Of a DNA stretch of 64,000 nt, positions 18,649 through 34,396 are shown piece by piece. The DNA comes from Oceanispirochaeta sp. (lineage in GTDB: Bacteria > Spirochaetota > Spirochaetia > DSM-2461): contig CAXXXD010000002.1 of NCBI GenBank assembly GCA_963663385.2, positions 1,472,001 to 1,536,000 on the forward strand, in the 5' to 3' direction. The translations under genes and the position numbers were made by a program. The notes below the pieces were generated by a model that had not been told where the DNA came from, ran no database searches, and saw only the letters and a list, made by a program, of their open reading frames with translations. Within the stretch, counting starts at the first letter, position 1, and every line of letters begins with the position of its first letter.

Positions 18649-18721
18649 GGGCCGCTAGCTCAGCTGGCAGAGCAACGCCCTTTTAAGGCGTGGGTCACTG
18701 GTTCGAACCCAGTGCGGCTCA
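18649..18721 (+). tRNA. tRNA-Lys(UUU), copy 1
   Basis: Cloverleaf; anticodon arm ACGCC-CTTTTAA-GGCGT; GGTTCGAACC T-loop. Confidence 0.97.
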
Positions 18722-18744
18722 AAGGCTAACCGAACGAACAAAAT

Positions 18745-18816
18745 GTCTCCATCGTCTAGGGGTTAGGACACCGGGTTTTCATCCCGGCAACGGGGGTTCG
18801 ATTCCCCCTGGAGATG
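18745..18816 (+). tRNA. tRNA-Glu(UUC), copy 1
   Basis: Anticodon arm CCGGG-TTTTCAT-CCCGG; GGTTCGATTCC. Confidence 0.97.
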
Positions 18817-18819
18817 AAC

Positions 18820-18892
18820 GGGCCGCTAGCTCAGCTGGCAGAGCAACGCCCTTTTAAGGCGTGGGTCACTGGTTCGAACCCAGTGCGGCTCA
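18820..18892 (+). tRNA. tRNA-Lys(UUU), copy 2
   Basis: Identical to 18649-18721. Confidence 0.97.
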
Positions 18893-18917
18893 TCCGTTTT
18901 TGTTCGGTTAGTTTTAT

Positions 18918-18989
18918 GTCTCCATCGTCTAGGGGTTAGGACACCGGGTTTTCATCCCGGCAACGGGGGTTCGATTCCCCCTGGAGATG
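18918..18989 (+). tRNA. tRNA-Glu(UUC), copy 2
   Basis: Identical to 18745-18816. Confidence 0.97.
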
Positions 18990-18995
18990 CTAATG

Positions 18996-22601: not shown

Positions 22602-24143
<1,542 letters not shown>

Positions 24144-24340
24144 AGCGTGAAAGGTATAAGTCTTGAGGTTTGTACGCCTTGAGCAGTGAGTCACTATTTA
24201 TAGTGCCTATCAGTAGTTACGTTCCTCGGTCTTTGACCTGTGGTACGTAACTTGCTTGATTCTCGTCAACTACTTCTAATTTCCCGTCAGATAATTCCTT
24301 AAAGGGCTTTAGGCGATTTGAGTTTAAGGCCAAACAATTA

Positions 24341-24414
<74 letters not shown>

Positions 24415-24548
24415 TAAAATTAAGTTTGTATCTTGAACAGGATCAAACTTTTTTTACGCCGAATTGCTTGCAGTGAGGCGGGAGATGCGGGAGGCTTTAC
24501 TCTTGCGGATCTTTGAAAAGGTAATAGCGAAGGGATAAATAATAATAT

Positions 24549-27473
<2,925 letters not shown>

Positions 27474-27583
27474 TATTATTATTTATCTCTTCAGTTTTAT
27501 ATAAATTGCAATCGCTTTGGAAGCTAGGAATACTTCTGGAGAGTGAATGCTTCTTGTCAGGGTAAGACTTGATAAGATTATTA

Positions 27584-27692
<109 letters not shown>

Positions 27693-27762: not shown

Positions 27763-29394
27763 TTATAACTCTGAAAAGCAGTCCCCCTGACAGAATCCTT
27801 CCTCATGAAGGGGGCAGTTCCTGCAGATATCAAATACCGGTCTCTGAATAAGGTTATTTAGCGTAGAGTAATAGTTTCCCGGTAAATTGTCCGCCCCTGA
27901 ATATTCCTTGAATCGGTATGTATCTTTTGTTAATGCTTCGCAGGGACTGTAAGTCCCATCGGGATTAAGATTAAAATGAGAAGTAAAATCGTTCCTGTCC
28001 AGATTGCAGATATTGTTTAGATGAGTGTTCCGGAGCAGGTACTTTGATGATTCATTGTCAAAGAGGCAAAGCGGTATAGGGTTTGATATGATGATTTTAT
28101 GTCTTCTGAATTCATATCTGCTTTTTAAATGTTTAACAATAGAGAGAAGATAATCCGCATAGGTTTTAATGGTTTGTTCCGACTTAACTTTATTACAGCG
28201 GGATAATGAGGCTGACAGGCTGATAACCGGATATTGAACTATATCAATATACTTGTTAAGGAAATCCCAGCTCTCATTTTCAGTAAAAGAAACATCATAT
28301 CGCAGAACAATCTGTTTAGAGCAGGTTGTTGCTTTCAGGATATTCTGTGTTATCTGGCGGATCTGCTGTTCTGATTTCAGATTTCTATCTTCAAATAGCT
28401 GAATCACAATTTTTTTCAGATCTTCGAATCTGATAATCTGTGACCAGATATTTTCATGAAATTGCGCCGTTGATGTTATGGTTGTCTGTAGATTGAATCG
28501 TGCTGTTTCAGACAGATAATTCAGGCAGTGGGGTAAAAGGTTTTCCAGACCAGACAGGTTCAGGGTTTTCTTTTCTTTTTCTGATGCGGTAATATTTAAA
28601 ATATCTTCAAACTTTTCCCAATTTATCTGCAGATCCGGAGCTGACGTGTCTTTTTTCCGGTTGGTGCAGTGAAAGCAGCTCATCGGGCCTGAATCCCGTA
28701 AATTAATGGAAACCTGGGTTGAAACCGATTCAAAGATCTTCTCCCGTTCTGCCCTGAATGTTTCATATAGTTTGAATTTCCCTTCTTTGAAAACTATTGT
28801 GCTGTCCAGATTTTCAATTCCCGGAAAATATGCCAGAGACAGGTAATGCTGCAAAAAAAGTTCATCCGGAATGCTGGAGAGAAGGTTTGAAAGATTTCTG
28901 AGTCTAAGTTCTGACAAGAGATGCAGAAAGAGGCTGTTATTAAAATGCCGTATATCAGGGTGAAAATCCTTTTTTTCAACCAACTTCCTTTTCCTGAATG
29001 AGAAGGCGGGATCCATCATAAGGAGATCAAATGCTTTATCTCTGATTGATGGATCATGGTAGAAGAGGAGAGGCAGTATATTTTCGGTTTGATTAAAATC
29101 AAAGTTGTTTTTCTGAAGATCCAGTAAACCTTTGAGGATAAAATCATTTGAAGACTGATTACCTCTGCTTAATTCAGGATTGACTTTATGGCCGGACTCT
29201 CCTGCAGTTGACTCATTCTCCACTTCCTGTTCCATTTGATTAATATTGAATTCTTTACCGATGGATCTGATCTGATACCATATTTTTTTTATTTTACCCA
29301 TATAAAAACCCAGCTTTCTTAAATGGGCAACAGAGTTTTTAGGGTCCAGAAGAAGAATTATAAAAAGAATCAGTATAATCTCAATTAATACCAT
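27763..29394 (-). CDS. TatB-like membrane anchor fused to a HEAT-like segment and a degenerate radical SAM/SPASM domain
   Basis: N-term EIILILFIILLLDPKNSVAHLRKLGFYMGKIKKIW (TM, Pro hinge, amphipathic helix); GPMSCFHC in place of CxxxCxxC; C-term PIPLC...NPDGTYSPC...CRNC-x7-CQGDC. Confidence 0.65.
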   Translation of the reverse strand: MVLIEIILILFIILLLDPKNSVAHLRKLGFYMGKIKKIWYQIRSIGKEFNINQMEQEVENESTAGESGHKVNPELSRGNQSSNDFILKGLLDLQKNNFDFNQTENILPLLFYHDPSIRDKAFDLLMMDPAFSFRKRKLVEKKDFHPDIRHFNNSLFLHLLSELRLRNLSNLLSSIPDELFLQHYLSLAYFPGIENLDSTIVFKEGKFKLYETFRAEREKIFESVSTQVSINLRDSGPMSCFHCTNRKKDTSAPDLQINWEKFEDILNITASEKEKKTLNLSGLENLLPHCLNYLSETARFNLQTTITSTAQFHENIWSQIIRFEDLKKIVIQLFEDRNLKSEQQIRQITQNILKATTCSKQIVLRYDVSFTENESWDFLNKYIDIVQYPVISLSASLSRCNKVKSEQTIKTYADYLLSIVKHLKSRYEFRRHKIIISNPIPLCLFDNESSKYLLRNTHLNNICNLDRNDFTSHFNLNPDGTYSPCEALTKDTYRFKEYSGADNLPGNYYSTLNNLIQRPVFDICRNCPLHEEGFCQGDCFSEL

Positions 29395-29395
29395 A

Positions 29396-30091
29396 TCAGC
29401 CCCATTTCAGGAGTTTTGCAGCAGCAAGACAGAGGAGATACAGGATGAACAGGGGGATCGCTACAATAAACTGGGATAGTAGGTCCTGAGTCATGACAGC
29501 CGAAATCAACAGGGCTACGGGAATAAAATAGGGAATGAATTTAATAAGTCTGGCTCTTTTCAGAATTCGGAATCTGAGCAGTATCAGGGTAATTACCGGA
29601 AACTGGAGCGCTACACAGAAGGCCAGGGTGAATTTGAAATAGAAGCTGATGAATTCATTATAGGAAAAAATCTTGGTCAGACTATCCGGAATAAATGCTT
29701 TAGATTCCAGAAAATAGATTGTTATGGGGAGAAAAATTCTTACAGCGTAAATGGCTGTACAGTAGAGAATTAGACTTAACAGAAAAAGAGTTGAAAAAGT
29801 TGTTTTCTCTTTTTTTTCCAGAGCCGGGAGGATAAAAAGAAGAATATTAAACAGGAAAACAGGAAGAGACAATAGCAGTCCTATATACAGTGAAACCTGG
29901 ATCCTGATAGTGAAGCCTTCATAGACTTTCATTACATGAAAATCTATTTGAAAGGTGCTGTTCAGATATCCTATAAAACGAGGGAAAAGAATGTAGGCGC
30001 TTATTGAAAAAATTATGAAAAAAACTAACGCAATTATCAGTTTCGTCCGTAACTCAATGAGGTGTTGTGTAAATGTGAGGTTTTTTTCCAT
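29396..30091 (-). CDS. tatC: Twin-arginine translocase subunit TatC
   Basis: TFTQHLIELRTKL, YEGF, FILPALEKKEK, QFPV; about six hydrophobic segments. Confidence 0.9.
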   Translation of the reverse strand: MEKNLTFTQHLIELRTKLIIALVFFIIFSISAYILFPRFIGYLNSTFQIDFHVMKVYEGFTIRIQVSLYIGLLLSLPVFLFNILLFILPALEKKEKTTFSTLFLLSLILYCTAIYAVRIFLPITIYFLESKAFIPDSLTKIFSYNEFISFYFKFTLAFCVALQFPVITLILLRFRILKRARLIKFIPYFIPVALLISAVMTQDLLSQFIVAIPLFILYLLCLAAAKLLKWG

Positions 30092-30298
30092 TTAATGGTT
30101 ATTGGAATCGGAATCGGATGGGTCATCATCCGGTTTTGAAGATTTCTCTTCACTCTCTTCTTTCATTCCGCTTTTAAGACCTTTCTTGAATTCTACCAGC
30201 CCTTCACCGATTGAGCGGCCCAGTTTCGGCAGCTTGGATGAACCGAAAATGAGTAATATGGCACCGCCAACTACAAGTATTTCTACAAGACTGATCAT
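30092..30298 (-). CDS. tatA: Twin-arginine translocase subunit TatA
   Basis: EILVV...LLIFGSSKLPKLGRSIGEGLVEFKKG; RBS GAGG. Confidence 0.93.
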   Translation of the reverse strand: MISLVEILVVGGAILLIFGSSKLPKLGRSIGEGLVEFKKGLKSGMKEESEEKSSKPDDDPSDSDSNNH

Positions 30299-30331
30299 GA
30301 GATACCTCTTTTATTAAAGCAAAGTTATTAC

Positions 30332-30595
30332 CTATTTAGTCTGTCCGTAATAGTAGTAATAATAGTAATAATAATTATAGTAGTCGGAATAGTAGTAGTA
30401 ATTGTAATAATTAGAGTAGTAATAGTAGTAATTGTAATAGTTAGAGTAATTGTAATAATCAGAGTAAGTAAAAAGATCACAGCTGCTGACGACTACTGCT
30501 GTTCCGATACCAAGACCGATTTTTCCAATTCTTTCCAGAGCCTGTCTACGGGAGATAGTCGGTTTTTCTTTGCTTTCACCAGTATCAGTTCCCAT
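30332..30595 (-). CDS. 87-aa Tyr-rich precursor with Tat signal and lipobox (putative rSAM substrate)
   Basis: GGAG RBS before ATG 30595; SRRQAL; hydrophobic stretch IGLGIGTAVVV; VSS-C39; core YSDYYNYSNYYNYYYYYSNYYNYYYYSDYYNYYYYYYYYY then GQTK. Confidence 0.85.
   Translation of the reverse strand: MGTDTGESKEKPTISRRQALERIGKIGLGIGTAVVVSSCDLFTYSDYYNYSNYYNYYYYYSNYYNYYYYSDYYNYYYYYYYYYGQTK
30347..30466 (-). repeat. Coding low-complexity repeat: four YS[D/N]YYN units plus poly-Tyr runs
   Basis: 28 of 40 codons are Tyr with TAT and TAC interleaved; the only other residues are Ser, Asn and Asp. Confidence 0.9.
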
Positions 30596-30618
30596 TTTCT
30601 TCTCCAAAAAATGTTCTC

Positions 30619-30634
30619 TTATACTTAAGTATAA
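30619..30634. promoter_or_regulatory. Perfect 16-bp palindrome upstream of the precursor gene
   Basis: TTATACTTAAGTATAA is its own reverse complement. Confidence 0.45.
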
Positions 30635-30653
30635 ATTCAATAATATCATATAT

Positions 30654-31760
30654 CTACTCATTCGGAAACATTTCTATTCGATTCCCGGTTAAAGGCTCGA
30701 TATACTGTGTCATCAGTCTTTGCACTATTTCACAGGCTTCTCCCCGTTTCATAATATCCCCCTTCAAAGCCAGTGTATCGATAGGGCATCCTCCATGACA
30801 CATCCCCCAGAAACGGCAGTATTTGCAGTCAGTCTGTTTCAGAACAATTTGCCGTTTATTTATGATATCTCTTTTACTGTGTTCCAAGGCCGCTCTGATA
30901 CCGGTATTCCGGATATTTCCATAATCTGCCAGGTTTTCATCTCCTGCTTTTCCGCATTGGGAAAGCTTTCCCGTTGGACCTATGTAGAGCCAGTGGTTGG
31001 CGCAATTACCGGCATAATCACATAGAAGTCCACCTTTGCCATTTATAAACCTGATAAACATATCAATTGGACGAAGACCTTCATACTTTTCCGGATTTGC
31101 CAGGTAGATCGGCACCAGCTTTCCAAGGAAGTCGGCATACTCTTCGGGCGTAATATTTATATTGAAGGGATCATCCCCGTAAATGTAAATTTTATTAAAG
31201 GCTGGAGTTGTCTTAGTGTTTATATTTTTCAGGTGGTTAAGTATTCCTACCGGATTTTCAAGGGATCTTCTATGAACGACATATATAACCCCCCAGCTCA
31301 GGTTGTTCCGTTCAGCCAGTTCCGTTCCCTTGAAAAAAAGCTCCTTATAGATCTTTGAATCCCTTTTTTCTCCTATTCCCCGAATACCTTCTATGGGGTC
31401 GTAACTTGAACCTATCATATCAATCTTCAACTCTTTAAATACATCAACTAATTCCTGTGTCAAGCAAGTCATATTTGATTGGATCAGATGCCGGATTCTG
31501 TTTTCAGTCTCTCTGCAATAGGTTCTCTGGTATTCCAGTGCCTTTCTGAAATAGTCAGGACCAAGAAGGCAGGGTTCTCCTCCATGCCAGGTCAGCTGTA
31601 TGGATTCATCCGGGAATTCCTTTAAATAGTCATTCATACGTTTAAACACTGTTTCCAGTATTTCGAAAGTCATTATTTTTTCCTGATGCTTTTTTATAAC
31701 ACCGCAGTAAAGACAGTTGGAATTGCAGAGTTCAATGGGTTTGAAAATTATAACTGCCAT
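30654..31760 (-). CDS. Radical SAM/SPASM enzyme, anSME-like (putative peptide maturase)
   Basis: KPIELCNSNCLYC; TWHGGEP; SPASM Cx5C-x15-C...GNI...CKYC-x5-CHGGCP...C. Confidence 0.9.
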   Translation of the reverse strand: MAVIIFKPIELCNSNCLYCGVIKKHQEKIMTFEILETVFKRMNDYLKEFPDESIQLTWHGGEPCLLGPDYFRKALEYQRTYCRETENRIRHLIQSNMTCLTQELVDVFKELKIDMIGSSYDPIEGIRGIGEKRDSKIYKELFFKGTELAERNNLSWGVIYVVHRRSLENPVGILNHLKNINTKTTPAFNKIYIYGDDPFNINITPEEYADFLGKLVPIYLANPEKYEGLRPIDMFIRFINGKGGLLCDYAGNCANHWLYIGPTGKLSQCGKAGDENLADYGNIRNTGIRAALEHSKRDIINKRQIVLKQTDCKYCRFWGMCHGGCPIDTLALKGDIMKRGEACEIVQRLMTQYIEPLTGNRIEMFPNE

Positions 31761-32629
31761 TTTTCGCCTTCCCGGCGGGGCTCCCGCTTCGTTGCTGAAT
31801 CTATATATTTGAGAATGCTGTCAAACAGGATTTTATAGGAATCATCTTTTTCACACTGGTTCAGGTAAGCCATCCGGCAGCTTCTCCAGGCCGAGCAGAA
31901 AGAACACTTTTCATTATCTATAAATACTCTGGTGCGAATTTCCCGGATTTTTCTGTTTTCACAATCATTGATAATCTCTTTCAGCTGTTCCAATCCGGAA
32001 CCCAGGAAATTTCCCTTTACCAGTTCATCCCTGCTTTCTGCTATATTCATACTCCTGTCTATATAGACAAATTGGGCCGGATCATTGAATACGGGGGCAG
32101 TTATCGAGAACGTTTCATTTTCATAATCCTTTGAGCAGAGAAAACGGAACGGCTCTATGTGGCCTTTTGGTACATTCGTGTAAGCAAAGTAGTGAAAAAG
32201 GTCGTCCAGGCTGTCCCAGTCGATATTATCACCACAACTTTTAAGATAGAAGCCGCAATCAATGTGCAGAGATGACAGAATCCTTAGATCTCGGATATTT
32301 TCCGCTTTATCTGCCGGGAAAAATACCTGCATATTAAAATTCCTCAACCTGCCTGTTTGTATAAGAATCATTGTCAGATCTCCTGTTTCCGGTACAAAGA
32401 GGGCAAGGGGAATCCCTTTGTAGGTATCTTTGAGTTCAAGTTCAGATAGACTTATATGAGAAGTTACTTTTATACAGAACAGACGGAAAAACTCTTTTGA
32501 AAGCTTGTCGATTTCTGTAACATCTTCCAGATTTTCGGTTTCTATAATACTTTCAATATCTTTCAGCTGACTTATCAAGTCCCTGTTGAAGGGTGCTACT
32601 ACGATTTTTTTTCTGTTTTTCTCTTTCAT
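31748..32629 (-). CDS. Degenerate SPASM-like protein with no CxxxCxxC motif
   Basis: C-term VYIDRSMNI...GNFLG...CSFCSAWRSC resembles the neighbour's LYIGPTGKL...YGNI...CKYCRFWGMC. Confidence 0.55.
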   Translation of the reverse strand: MKEKNRKKIVVAPFNRDLISQLKDIESIIETENLEDVTEIDKLSKEFFRLFCIKVTSHISLSELELKDTYKGIPLALFVPETGDLTMILIQTGRLRNFNMQVFFPADKAENIRDLRILSSLHIDCGFYLKSCGDNIDWDSLDDLFHYFAYTNVPKGHIEPFRFLCSKDYENETFSITAPVFNDPAQFVYIDRSMNIAESRDELVKGNFLGSGLEQLKEIINDCENRKIREIRTRVFIDNEKCSFCSAWRSCRMAYLNQCEKDDSYKILFDSILKYIDSATKREPRREGEKWQL

Positions 32630-33621
32630 ATCAGATCCTCCGCAGGAAGGTACTCTTCAATGAAATTTGCCAGGCATCCTCCGGCACATTTTTCGTTTTT
32701 CATATAAATGCAGGATTCACACTCATCGTATATTCCCGCTTTATTCCTGCGGACGGCTTTGTGCATATCGTTGTAGTACTTGTATATATCTTCCACCGAA
32801 TCAAATTCAAAAATACTCCTTCTTTTGAATCTTGACAGTGGAAAGCAGGACCAGACCGTCATATCAGGGCCTATATCCAGAGCCGAGCTGCATACAAATT
32901 TTACAGTAGACGGTCCCTGTCCTTTTTCCAGTTTAAAAAACTGACCGATCTGCTCGTCTGTAAAACTGCATAAGGGAAAGCCGCAGTCAAATCCGGCGCT
33001 TACATTGTGTTTTATAAAGAGAGGCAGATAGGATGACAGTTTCGCAGCCATTTCCTTGAAGTGATCAGGTTTGATACACAGATTCTTTTCCCCTGGTATG
33101 GGGTGGGCCAGGCCTATCCGTATATGTCTGTTTATACCGTATCGTTCAATGTGTTCGAAAAGGTATTCCATGGTGGCTTCCAGGGTGAAAAGATTGAAGC
33201 TGAGGGTGCAGTATTTTCCCAGTACCCGCAGAAAAGCATCAATCCTCTCCAGTTCCTTATCCGTGGACATGGACGGGTGGTTCAGGTTTACTACAAAGCG
33301 GACCCGATGTTCCGGAAACTGTTCCAGGCTGGCAACCAGATGATCCAGCTTCTTTTGAGACATAATTCCGCAGGTGAAAACGGTAACCCCGAAATTCCTG
33401 TTTATCAGATAGAGAATAAACTCGGTAAAATATTTATGAACGGAAGGTTCTCCTCCCAGAAGGGACAACTGGTTGTTCATATGGGACCGTTCGAAAAGAT
33501 CTACAATGTAGATGAAATCTTCCCAGCTTATAAACTTGTGATCTGAGCTGTCCATATATTTTTTAGCAAAGCAGTAGGGGCAGGATCTGACACACTCTTC
33601 GGTAAGCAATATATTTGGCAT
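32626..33621 (-). CDS. Radical SAM protein with SPASM/twitch-type C-terminus
   Basis: LTEECVRSCPYC; LLGGEP; DCGFPLC; VCSSALDIGPDMTVWSC; CESC-x7-CAGGC. Confidence 0.9.
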   Translation of the reverse strand: MPNILLTEECVRSCPYCFAKKYMDSSDHKFISWEDFIYIVDLFERSHMNNQLSLLGGEPSVHKYFTEFILYLINRNFGVTVFTCGIMSQKKLDHLVASLEQFPEHRVRFVVNLNHPSMSTDKELERIDAFLRVLGKYCTLSFNLFTLEATMEYLFEHIERYGINRHIRIGLAHPIPGEKNLCIKPDHFKEMAAKLSSYLPLFIKHNVSAGFDCGFPLCSFTDEQIGQFFKLEKGQGPSTVKFVCSSALDIGPDMTVWSCFPLSRFKRRSIFEFDSVEDIYKYYNDMHKAVRRNKAGIYDECESCIYMKNEKCAGGCLANFIEEYLPAEDLI

Positions 33622-33682: not shown

Positions 33683-33748
33683 ATTAATACAAAAATGTTT
33701 ATTATTCATCTCTTGTAAATTATGTGTCAGTCTGTAAAATCTATAGTA

Positions 33749-34396
33749 ATGAAATCCCCTCCTTCGAAAATAGTCCTTTTAACTCCTCTTATCCCTGAAT
33801 TTCACGCAGCCAGGGAAGCTTTTGGAGCCAGGGAATTGGAAAACGGGAGTTACCCGGGAGTCCGGATGGCTGAATGGCGCAGAAAAGGACTGATCCTTAC
33901 GATTGTGCAATGCGGATTGGGAGATAAGGGCGTAAAGAGCGTTCTGCCACTGTTATCGGAACTTCATCCTGATCTTCTGATCGATTCCGGCAGCTGCGGA
34001 GGCCTGAATCCTGCTTTCCCTCCGGGCTCCCTTGTAATGGCCGGAGAGGTTGTTTCCTCTGAAAGCCGTACGGTCCTGTCCATGGATTTTTCCGGTTTTG
34101 AGGGTTCCTTTTCTGATTCCGGTTATTTAAAAACCAGGATGCTGGAAGTTCCTGATCCGGTTCTGGATCAGAAAAGCAGGGATGAATTTCAAAGCAGTAC
34201 CGGAGCCGGTGTATGCTCCATGGAAACCTATGCCGTTGCCGAATGGGCGAGGGATAACGCCGTTAAGTGTTTCAGTCTCAGGGTTGTCACCGACCGGGCT
34301 GATGAGAATACCGGGAAGGATTTCAGGAGGAACCTGCGTAATAATACGCTGCTCCTTTATCGTGCGATAAAACAAATACTGAGTTCTCTCCGGTAA
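33749..34396 (+). CDS. Nucleoside phosphorylase / MTA-SAH nucleosidase superfamily protein
   Basis: CGLG, DSGSCGGL, CSMETYAVA, LRVVTDRAD; start may instead be 33722. Confidence 0.75.
   Translation: MKSPPSKIVLLTPLIPEFHAAREAFGARELENGSYPGVRMAEWRRKGLILTIVQCGLGDKGVKSVLPLLSELHPDLLIDSGSCGGLNPAFPPGSLVMAGEVVSSESRTVLSMDFSGFEGSFSDSGYLKTRMLEVPDPVLDQKSRDEFQSSTGAGVCSMETYAVAEWARDNAVKCFSLRVVTDRADENTGKDFRRNLRNNTLLLYRAIKQILSSLR

Follow-up and report, generated by a model that had tools for sequence, protein, structure and literature searches.

Relation to described radical SAM systems

In the HXS antiphage system, the radical S-adenosylmethionine (SAM) proteins HxsB and HxsC and the small protein HxsD accompany an effector with a signal peptide and His-x-Ser repeats, whose maturation takes place in the cytoplasm and whose action is periplasmic (PMC13128918). 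Triceptides are peptides whose aromatic-X-X motifs are cross-linked by enzymes that form three-residue cyclophanes (3-CyFEs), as set out in a second report (PMC11499958). A 64,000 bp stretch of Oceanispirochaeta sp. DNA (assembly GCA_963663385.2, contig CAXXXD010000002.1, positions 1,472,001 to 1,536,000; this whole stretch is called the window) carries seven genes, including tatA and tatC of the twin-arginine translocation (Tat) pathway, for which HXS is the nearest described system in architecture and the triceptides are the nearest in likely chemistry. The operon is a real, undescribed variant of radical SAM peptide or protein maturation, and on balance we think that it is probably the spirochaete, Tat-linked variant of a widespread cassette that matures small exported proteins built of Tyr repeats.

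The likeness to HXS lies in two different radical SAM proteins (here rSAM-A and rSAM-B), a non-radical SAM helper and a signal-bearing substrate with a three-residue repeat, and in weak matches of rSAM-B to HxsB (1.5e-16) and of rSAM-A to HxsC (1.4e-4). The systems differ in that Tyr-x-Ser/Asn/Asp repeats stand here in place of His-x-Ser, the precursor has a Tat-like leader, a 293 aa pseudo-radical SAM protein is the helper, a peptidoglycan-binding domain is missing, and the Hxs models (NCBIfam TIGR03977/TIGR03978) score far below their cut-offs (60.3 against 370 for HxsB and 20.8 against 267.9 for HxsC). With the triceptide systems (GrrM/OscB, FxsB, YhhB and ChlB) the operon shares a repeated aromatic-X-X core and a radical SAM/SPASM maturase without an RRE (recognition element of RiPPs, peptides made by the ribosome and modified after translation), and among the solved relatives of rSAM-B the second best is ChlB, whose target is a Tyr motif. 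It differs from them in having a second radical SAM protein and a pseudo-radical SAM protein, cores with up to 28 Tyr in 49 residues, a Tat-like leader with a lipobox, and tat genes, with no protease or exporter. None of the 3-CyFE cut-offs is reached by rSAM-B (GrrM/OscB, 80 against 310; FxsB, 38.2 against 370; YhhB, 71.8 against 445; AmcB, 81.3 against 425), nor are those of the dynobactin and darobactin enzymes DynA (121.9 against 450) and DarE (113.8 against 650). The sulfatase maturase anSME (TIGR03942; structure 4k36), the best solved relative of rSAM-B, is likewise a protein-modifying radical SAM/SPASM enzyme that has no RRE and acts before export; rSAM-B reaches 121.1 bits with this model against a cut-off of 349.45, and its presumed substrate is no sulfatase.

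A first-pass annotation of the window, made from the sequence alone, had recognized no described system of this architecture, and that assessment stands. No curated NCBIfam maturase model reaches its cut-off with rSAM-B, the HXS, triceptide, anSME and DarE/DynA models included, so the cluster does not fall into any of these characterized families; all lie far below. In the literature searched, which did not extend to subscription journals or supplementary files, no description was found of radical SAM proteins joined to Tyr-rich precursors, Tat signals, lipoproteins or heptosyltransferases. Relative to that literature, a system that joins radical SAM maturation to Tat export is new (each is known separately), as are precursors of up to ~60% Tyr and a Tat subunit fused to a radical SAM domain.

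Gene organization of the operon

The operon consists of seven tightly packed open reading frames (ORFs) on the minus strand, between window positions 33621 and 27763, in the order given here.

33621-32626, minus strand: rSAM-A, 331 aa
32629-31748, minus strand: p293, 293 aa
31760-30654, minus strand: rSAM-B (radical SAM/SPASM), 368 aa
30595-30332, minus strand: Tyr-rich precursor, 87 aa
30298-30092, minus strand: tatA, 68 aa
30091-29396, minus strand: tatC, divergent, 231 aa
29394-27763, minus strand: p543, 543 aa

The rSAM-A and p293 genes overlap by 4 nt and p293 and rSAM-B by 13 nt, and the intergenic gaps are 58 nt after rSAM-B, 33 nt after the precursor gene, 0 after tatA and 1 nt after tatC. 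Because the junctions overlap or have only short gaps, they indicate that the seven genes form one operon. Coordinates and family or fold matches agree with the gene order and with the identities first proposed for all seven products, including the two degenerate radical SAM-like proteins. Pfam and NCBIfam scans of the operon proteins gave no peptidase, ABC exporter or RRE family match, in keeping with the first reading of these genes.

A cassette shared by more than ten phyla

Related loci were collected by a genome scan, which found no relative with the single rSAM-B sequence as query; an alignment (A1) found at least 566 tblastn-confirmed stretches, the best 80 of which gave 78 loci. Counts below are over the 60 orthologous loci (L001-L060; rSAM-B identity 37-62%); the remaining loci (L061-L078) encode distant radical SAM enzymes (24-28% identity) and are excluded throughout. 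rSAM-A is present in 57 of the 60 and p293 in 59, and the order is always rSAM-A, p293, rSAM-B. These loci span more than ten phyla and, by their record titles, include Spirochaetota, Bacteroidota (among them a complete Segatella copri genome), Ignavibacteria, Planctomycetota, Elusimicrobia, Acidobacteriota, Nitrospirota, Desulfobacterota-type bacteria, Armatimonadota, Gemmatimonadota, Kiritimatiellae and Veillonellaceae.

A small ORF with a conserved leader lies beside the enzyme genes in 53 of the 60 loci, in 47 with the motif up- or downstream and in six more under relaxed criteria, which admit ORFs that run off contig ends or have slightly different leader motifs. The seven loci where none was found comprise five contigs of 2.6-6.4 kb and the loci L053 and L056. 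This recurrence beside the same enzymes rules out chance as the source of the precursor and upholds the original proposal that it is a real gene tied to them. Judged from these sequences, the enzymes and precursor make up a widespread and conserved system, of which the literature searched gave no description, and the family is broader than the first-pass annotation, confined to one window, could know.

The leader consensus is [IL][ST]RR[DE]A[LI]KR[IM]A(K). In the 48 precursors aligned, the Ala at +3 is invariant (48/48), Arg at +6 is present in 46, Lys at +5 in 43 and the Arg pair in 43-44. At E<=1 the TAT_signal model matches 24 of 47 family leaders (best 6.2e-4), and in the same comparison it also matches Tat-signal regions from Iro, formate dehydrogenase and MelC1; at the family level, then, the description of the leader as Tat-like has some support. 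In the cores of the 48 precursors, Tyr accounts for 32% of the residues, Ser for 17%, Asn for 10%, Asp for 5% and His for 1.2%. Tyr pairs spaced three or six residues apart (676 and 534) outnumber those one or two apart (353 and 279), and the residue two positions after a Tyr is Ser in 314 cases, Tyr in 279, Asn in 217 and Asp in 105. In Elusimicrobia and some Acidobacteria the leader is kept and the cores are Tyr-poor.

A Bacteroidales precursor of 255 aa (L044:9040-9807, plus strand) consists of an RR leader, a Tyr/Ser repeat and a C-terminal Peptidase_S74 domain (2.1e-16). This "chaperone of endosialidase" domain is otherwise known from trimeric phage fibers. Because the Tyr repeat is here fused to a fiber-folding chaperone domain, the L044 protein hints that the repeat may form a structural fiber.

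The Tyr-rich precursor of the Oceanispirochaeta operon

The precursor gene has the ribosome-binding site GGAGAAG ahead of its ATG, and its product divides at a predicted lipobox (V-S-S-C, residues 36-39, which fits the pattern [LVI][ASTVI][GAS]C) into two parts.

30482..30595, minus strand: leader, residues 1-38, with ISRRQALERIGK, a hydrophobic stretch and the lipobox V-S-S-C
30332..30481, minus strand: core, residues 39-87 and stop codon, C-DLFT-(Y-x-[S/N/D] and poly-Y)

The 49-residue core (C39-K87) contains 28 Tyr, 6 Asn, 4 Ser and 3 Asp, with ten overlapping Y-x-[S/N/D] units; the precursor has no His, and no sulfatase-type C/S-x-P/A-x-R motif occurs in its 87 aa. No other ORF of the 5.3-Mb genome is strongly Tyr-rich: over 30 residues the precursor reaches 23 Tyr at best, and the next-best ORF 9. 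The genome has one gene each for Lgt (PF01790) and LspA (PF01252). That the ORF is a spurious frame in TAT/TAC-rich DNA was considered, and is ruled out by the ribosome-binding site, the conserved leader and the recurrence across distant phyla.

The maturation enzymes

rSAM-B carries the radical SAM-associated SPASM domain (TIGR04085) above its cut-off (40.9 against 27 bits), matches Radical_SAM and has invariant Cys at C12, C16 and C19 (CxxxCxxC) and eight further invariant Cys; its set of SPASM Cys is full. Its best NCBIfam models are TIGR04083 (1e-37), DynA (2.8e-35), anSME (5.4e-35) and DarE (8.2e-33), and the cyclophane synthases AmcB and GrrM/OscB match at ~1e-22. The nearest solved structures, both aligned over the full length, are anSME (4k36, 1.2e-29) and ChlB (9gm3, 1.7e-10), a triceptide synthase that modifies Tyr. 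There are 214 relatives in the protein collections at E<=1e-10, and those with names are labelled only radical SAM protein, hypothetical protein or uncharacterized protein. rSAM-A has the CxxxCxxC motif (C10/C14/C17), a GGEP motif and a C-terminal SPASM-like CxxCx7CxxxC region, and matches Radical_SAM (PF04055) at 9.8e-12; its Cys and GGEP columns are invariant in 27 aligned orthologues, and in the PDB it finds generic radical SAM N-terminal matches only.

p293 matches no Pfam family, its one NCBIfam match, attributable to chance, stays below the threshold (15.8 bits; cut-off, 30), and hhalign finds no sequence relation to rSAM-A. Its AlphaFold2 (AF2) model is confident (pLDDT 88.7, pTM 0.87), and the top Foldseek matches are the radical SAM/SPASM maturases CteB, SuiB, TigE, ChlB and anSME (TMq 0.5-0.57). 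Since the modeled fold is maturase-like and CxxxCxxC is lost, with three invariant Cys (C242/C245/C251) in a CxxCx5C pattern, p293 is, by its predicted structure, a pseudo-radical SAM protein. Searched with a p293 profile, a set of 1.84 billion proteins yields 442 cluster representatives at E<=1e-3, of which 269 reach E<=1e-30, and the neighbors of p293 in the protein atlas are all named hypothetical protein. A complex prediction from the p293 and leader alignments scored 0.00, which speaks neither for nor against binding.

Both rSAM-A and rSAM-B also weakly match the PqqE, mycofactocin maturase and quinohemoprotein amine dehydrogenase maturase models, which, with the repetitive, multi-unit core, could be taken to mean that the peptide is a sacrificial scaffold from which a Tyr-derived small molecule or cofactor is carved out in the manner of pyrroloquinoline quinone or mycofactocin, possibly in many copies per precursor. 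However, all of those scores are far below their cut-offs, neither a peptidase nor any further tailoring enzyme is encoded in the operon, the export signal and lipobox speak for export of the polypeptide in one piece, and the L044 fusion to Peptidase_S74 suggests a structural protein. We consider such a scaffold highly improbable, and continue below with maturation of an intact exported protein.

The Tat genes

The tatA and tatC products match their Pfam families well above the gathering scores (PF02416, 6.9e-15, 54.5 against 21; PF00902, 1.8e-34, 119.8 against 25.1) and fall below the cut-offs of the NCBIfam Tat equivalogs (TatC, 110 against 132.7; TatA, 51.4 against 53.9). The operon's TatC is the only one in the genome, and its tatA is the sole tblastn match. 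No protein of this genome matches TAT_signal (TIGR01409) above its cut-off; 11 of 14 control genomes pass. A regular-expression scan for Tat substrates returned 33 weak candidates in the genome, none of them convincing, and missed the precursor itself, and the TIGR01409 result was used instead.

Among 251 sampled Spirochaetota genomes, TatC is found in 129 and the cassette in three. In families f2-f7, which contain all the listed genomes of the same class, only one of 34 genomes has TatC, and the Oceanispirochaeta TatC has the lowest full-length score of all TatCs in the sample. In a tree of 31 rows, the cassette-linked spirochaete TatCs form one clade (100/98) inside the spirochaete TatC group (99/99), and the four linked Bacteroidales TatCs form another (92/97), to which neither four housekeeping copies from Bacteroidaceae nor the second TatC of genome G253 belongs; an Acidobacteria row (G381) with a very long branch is probably a wrong ORF and was disregarded. 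The cassette-adjacent TatC is also the sole TatC in S. copri (G251) and in G252 and G254, and G253 and G255 have a second copy. In G251 and G252 the Tyr-rich precursor is the best TAT_signal match of the whole genome, although below the cut-off.

As far as sequence can tell, Tat is thus dedicated to the cassette in Oceanispirochaeta. The precursor-tatA-tatC-TatB-radical SAM arrangement recurs in five spirochaete loci (L001, L002, L003, L015 and L045). A Spirochaetaceae locus (L029) has a rearranged variant with tatA and tatC further on and tatC on the opposite strand, and L054 has the p543-like gene only. In L029 a YcaO-domain gene (L029:10338-11414, plus strand; 6.5e-16) follows the TatB-radical SAM gene.

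p543, a candidate TatB-like segment fused to a radical SAM fold

The last gene of the operon encodes a protein of three predicted parts.

29254..29394, minus strand: residues 1-47, TatB/TatA-like short transmembrane helix, Pro hinge and amphipathic helix (hhalign, AF2)
28720..29253, minus strand: residues 48-225, disordered linker (43-78) and all-helical domain (79-225) (AF2)
27763..28719, minus strand: residues 226-543, degenerate rSAM-A paralogue (hhalign, AF2)

Residues 3-40 align with an alignment of operon-type TatA proteins (hhalign 80.7%, E 1.3e-5), and the AF2 model places helices 2-16 and 18-47 around a Pro hinge, which is the TatA/B layout. hhalign shows homology of residues 230-543 to rSAM-A (99.7%, E 3e-25), and the modeled residues 224-543 resemble anSME (Z 18.8), SuiB (18.4) and ChlB (17.8). 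The CxxxCxxC and GGEPT motifs are kept in five of seven p543 homologues and lost in the Oceanispirochaeta copy and in L015; the Oceanispirochaeta protein has lost the first Cys of CxxxCxxC and the GGEP motif and keeps the SPASM-like Cys. The Radical_SAM Pfam model matches six of the seven family members, not this genome's copy. The family thus appears to be a TatB-like anchor fused to a real radical SAM enzyme, and the Oceanispirochaeta member to be catalytically dead.

The domain formed by residues 79-225 (28720-29157, minus strand) is a confidently modeled all-helical unit (pLDDT ~85-92) with conserved LPLLFD...DPxFxF motifs; the fold search with the p543 model was dominated by the radical SAM domain and hardly covered residues 1-216.

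Proposed pathway and the evidence that bears on it

In the following proposed course, translation of the precursor, its delivery to Tat and the role of the TatB-like fusion rest on co-occurrence of the genes, and the chemistry and the lipidation are inferred. The 87-aa precursor would be made in the cytoplasm, where rSAM-B, and probably rSAM-A too, would abstract hydrogen by means of the 5'-deoxyadenosyl radical and modify the Tyr-x-(S/N/D) units repeatedly. Because of this motif and the kinship of rSAM-B to ChlB, DarE and DynA, triceptide-like links are the best guess, and the likeliest modification would be cyclophane cross-links from the Tyr ring to a C-beta, or ether cross-links, of the triceptide/darobactin type; Ser oxidation of the anSME kind is a possible alternative. 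p293 may be a non-catalytic scaffold or a subunit that holds the peptide. The RR leader would then take the modified product to the co-encoded TatA and TatC, through which it would be exported folded or cross-linked. Export by Tat rather than Sec would make sense because the modification depends on Fe-S clusters and SAM of the cytoplasm (as well as nucleotide sugars where the locus also encodes a glycosyltransferase) and because the product should be bulky.

The TatB-like fusion would place a radical SAM-like domain at the translocon, either as the last-step enzyme or as a substrate receptor or checkpoint, probably as an enzyme in most homologues and as a receptor or checkpoint in Oceanispirochaeta. 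Lgt and LspA would act next, lipidating Cys39 of the exported protein and taking off its leader, and the end product would be a poly-Tyr peptide of 49 residues, fixed on the periplasmic side by its lipid anchor. A structural or barrier role in the envelope is more likely for such a product than that of a diffusible antibiotic. The Tat proofreading chaperones TorD, DmsD and NapD are dedicated cytoplasmic proteins that hold a Tat substrate until its maturation is complete. By analogy, the radical SAM-fold domain of p543, or p293, is a candidate for such a holder.

A number of observations weigh against parts of this pathway. On the chemistry, the score of rSAM-B with the model for anSME, which oxidizes Ser or Cys, exceeds its score with every cyclophane synthase model. 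On the leader, that of this genome has no TAT_signal match at E<=1, nor is it among the genome's matches at E<=10, and extra charged residues (ALERIGK) lie between its Arg pair and the hydrophobic stretch. On p543, support for the TatB-like segment is modest (in addition to the hhalign probability given above, TatB_Rickett reaches 17.9 bits at 0.0027 against a cut-off of 75), Pfam TatA_B_E matches none of the seven family members, and, because the radical SAM motifs are lost, the Oceanispirochaeta copy cannot be the last-step enzyme. On lipidation, a lipobox-like Cys follows the hydrophobic stretch in only ~17-23 of the 48 precursors, and in none of those of Prevotella and Muribaculaceae, so lipidation appears not to be a family constant. 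On the tat genes, tatC lies within 7 kb in 10 of the 60 loci, and in the cassette genomes that have no linked tat genes, TatC was present in eight of ten and was not seen in the other two, Elusimicrobia metagenome-assembled genomes of uncertain completeness. Of 121 sampled Bacteroidaceae genomes, 96 have TatC and two have the cassette, which in G288 lies on another contig than TatC; because TatC is so common there and the cassette so rare, Tat is not dedicated to the cassette in that family.

Tat linkage is therefore best described, from the loci compared, as a variant feature and not as a constant of the family. The proposal of the first-pass annotation that the precursor has its own Tat translocase thus holds in part: in this genome the sole tatA and tatC travel with the cassette, but this is a property of the spirochaete variant, with most other loci having a glycosyltransferase gene instead. 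Likewise, of the two linkages that it expected of the enzyme pair, the one to a precursor held in 53 of the 60 orthologous loci and the one to tat genes did not hold in general. Four of the ten tatC-linked loci are from Prevotella and Muribaculaceae, with tatA and tatC directly after the precursor gene.

These same facts raise the question of whether the RR leader is mainly a handle by which the maturases recognize the precursor, as in RiPPs, with export through Sec and signal peptidase I or II and the tat genes of the spirochaete and Prevotella/Muribaculaceae loci being neighbors for other reasons. Conservation of the leader beyond what Tat needs (the Ala at +3 and Arg at +6) would fit, as would the failure of the Oceanispirochaeta leader to match TAT_signal, the two cassette genomes in which no TatC was seen and the small share of loci with a nearby tatC. 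Against this stand the facts that this genome has no tatA or tatC outside the operon and no other candidate substrate that passes TAT_signal, that a TatB-like segment is fused to a paralogue of a cassette enzyme, that the linked TatCs are monophyletic, and that the Arg pair is kept in nearly all family leaders, about half of which match TAT_signal. Export by Sec thus seems unlikely to us, and Tat export remains the preferred route.

Tentatively, and with more doubt than attaches to the assignment of the operon to the cassette family, one may go further and picture a substrate-dedicated Tat translocon with a built-in radical SAM module, borne by the TatB-like subunit, that finishes or verifies the cross-linking of a poly-Tyr lipoprotein at the translocase mouth, so that export is mechanically coupled to maturation. 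The module would be active in most homologues and a receptor in Oceanispirochaeta, where a whole Tat pathway would serve one substrate. The compact seven-gene operon and the single predicted Tat substrate should give unusually clean genetics, and they offer a natural test case for the acceptance by Tat of substrates already modified before they leave the cytoplasm, and for proofreading specific to a substrate. The family as a whole likely represents a new class of heavily modified envelope proteins or lipoproteins in gut Prevotella/Segatella, Bacteroidales, Ignavibacteria, Acidobacteria, Nitrospirota and others.

Glycosyltransferase and other variant loci

In 29 of the 60 loci, rSAM-B is followed by a glycosyltransferase of the GT9 family, 44-63% identical across phyla. 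In two loci, from a Veillonellaceae and an Acidobacteria genome, the two form a single polypeptide (L035:7001-9055, 684 aa; L039:7001-9109, 702 aa). Because the GT9 protein follows rSAM-B or is fused to it, this neighborhood suggests that the Ser/Tyr-rich repeat may be glycosylated in the cytoplasm before export, presumably with use of the general Tat pathway. The autotransporter heptosyltransferases of the TibC/AAH type are GT9-like enzymes. The likeness to these is confined to the GT9-variant loci; the Oceanispirochaeta genome has no such GT9 protein.

In an Ignavibacteria locus (L006:9377-10846) and a Bacteroides locus (L007:4875-6134), a B12-binding radical SAM gene lies directly after the precursor gene, and its product is a possible third modification enzyme. 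Weak TatA-like matches stand beside the precursor in two Bacteroidetes loci that contain no tatC (L048:7172-7297, 8e-4; L021:9587-9718, 2e-4). In a Segatella copri locus (L033:1010-4429, plus strand), a PP2C phosphatase and a Ser/Thr kinase fused to an FGE-sulfatase (formylglycine-generating-enzyme-like) domain lie upstream, and a DDE transposase follows tatC.

Genomic setting of the operon

The GC content of the operon is 0.396 against 0.465 for the genome, which places it in the lowest 4.2% of 2643 windows of equal size. No defence-type families were found among the scanned flanking genes of the window, which are of the housekeeping kind (CheW, NAD kinase, RecN and an rRNA operon). A promoter and terminator scan gave promoter predictions that are not above those of shuffled sequences (21 against 16.2 +/- 4.7).

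The low GC, together with the patchy distribution of the cassette in the Spirochaetota and Bacteroidaceae samples, would fit a role in envelope defence like that of HXS, in which the two radical SAM proteins and a helper mature a repeat effector against phages or other invaders and the Tyr array forms a multivalent barrier. The three-residue repeat logic is common to both systems, both enzymes have the Hxs matches given above, and the layout is similar, with two radical SAM proteins, the small HxsD and a signal-peptide effector in HXS (PMC13128918). Yet these Hxs scores are a small part of what the models demand, PADLOC gives generic viperin-type radical SAM matches only, the flanking genes are as just described, and the core is neutral to acidic and Tyr-rich, whereas HxsA is basic. 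A defence role of this kind is improbable in our judgment; it concerns the biology of the product and is compatible with the proposed maturation and export mechanism, which we retain.

The gene divergent from rSAM-A, at 33722-34396 on the plus strand, belongs to the PNP_UDP_1 family and matches the HpnG-like, methylthioadenosine/S-adenosylhomocysteine (MTA/SAH) nucleosidase and futalosine hydrolase models, in each case below the cut-off. MTA/SAH-type nucleosidases can remove 5'-deoxyadenosine, a radical SAM by-product. Because this gene has no counterpart in any of the 78 related loci and a GC content of 0.492, it probably lies outside the low-GC island. On the other side, the rRNA operon (16S, tRNA-Ile, 23S and 5S; 22602-27692, plus strand) converges on the 3' end of the seven-gene operon, and tRNA-Ile is the sole tRNA of its 16S-23S spacer. 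Farther along, at 18649-18990 on the plus strand of the window, a tandem pair of tRNA-Lys(ttt) and tRNA-Glu(ttc) genes is present in two repeats.

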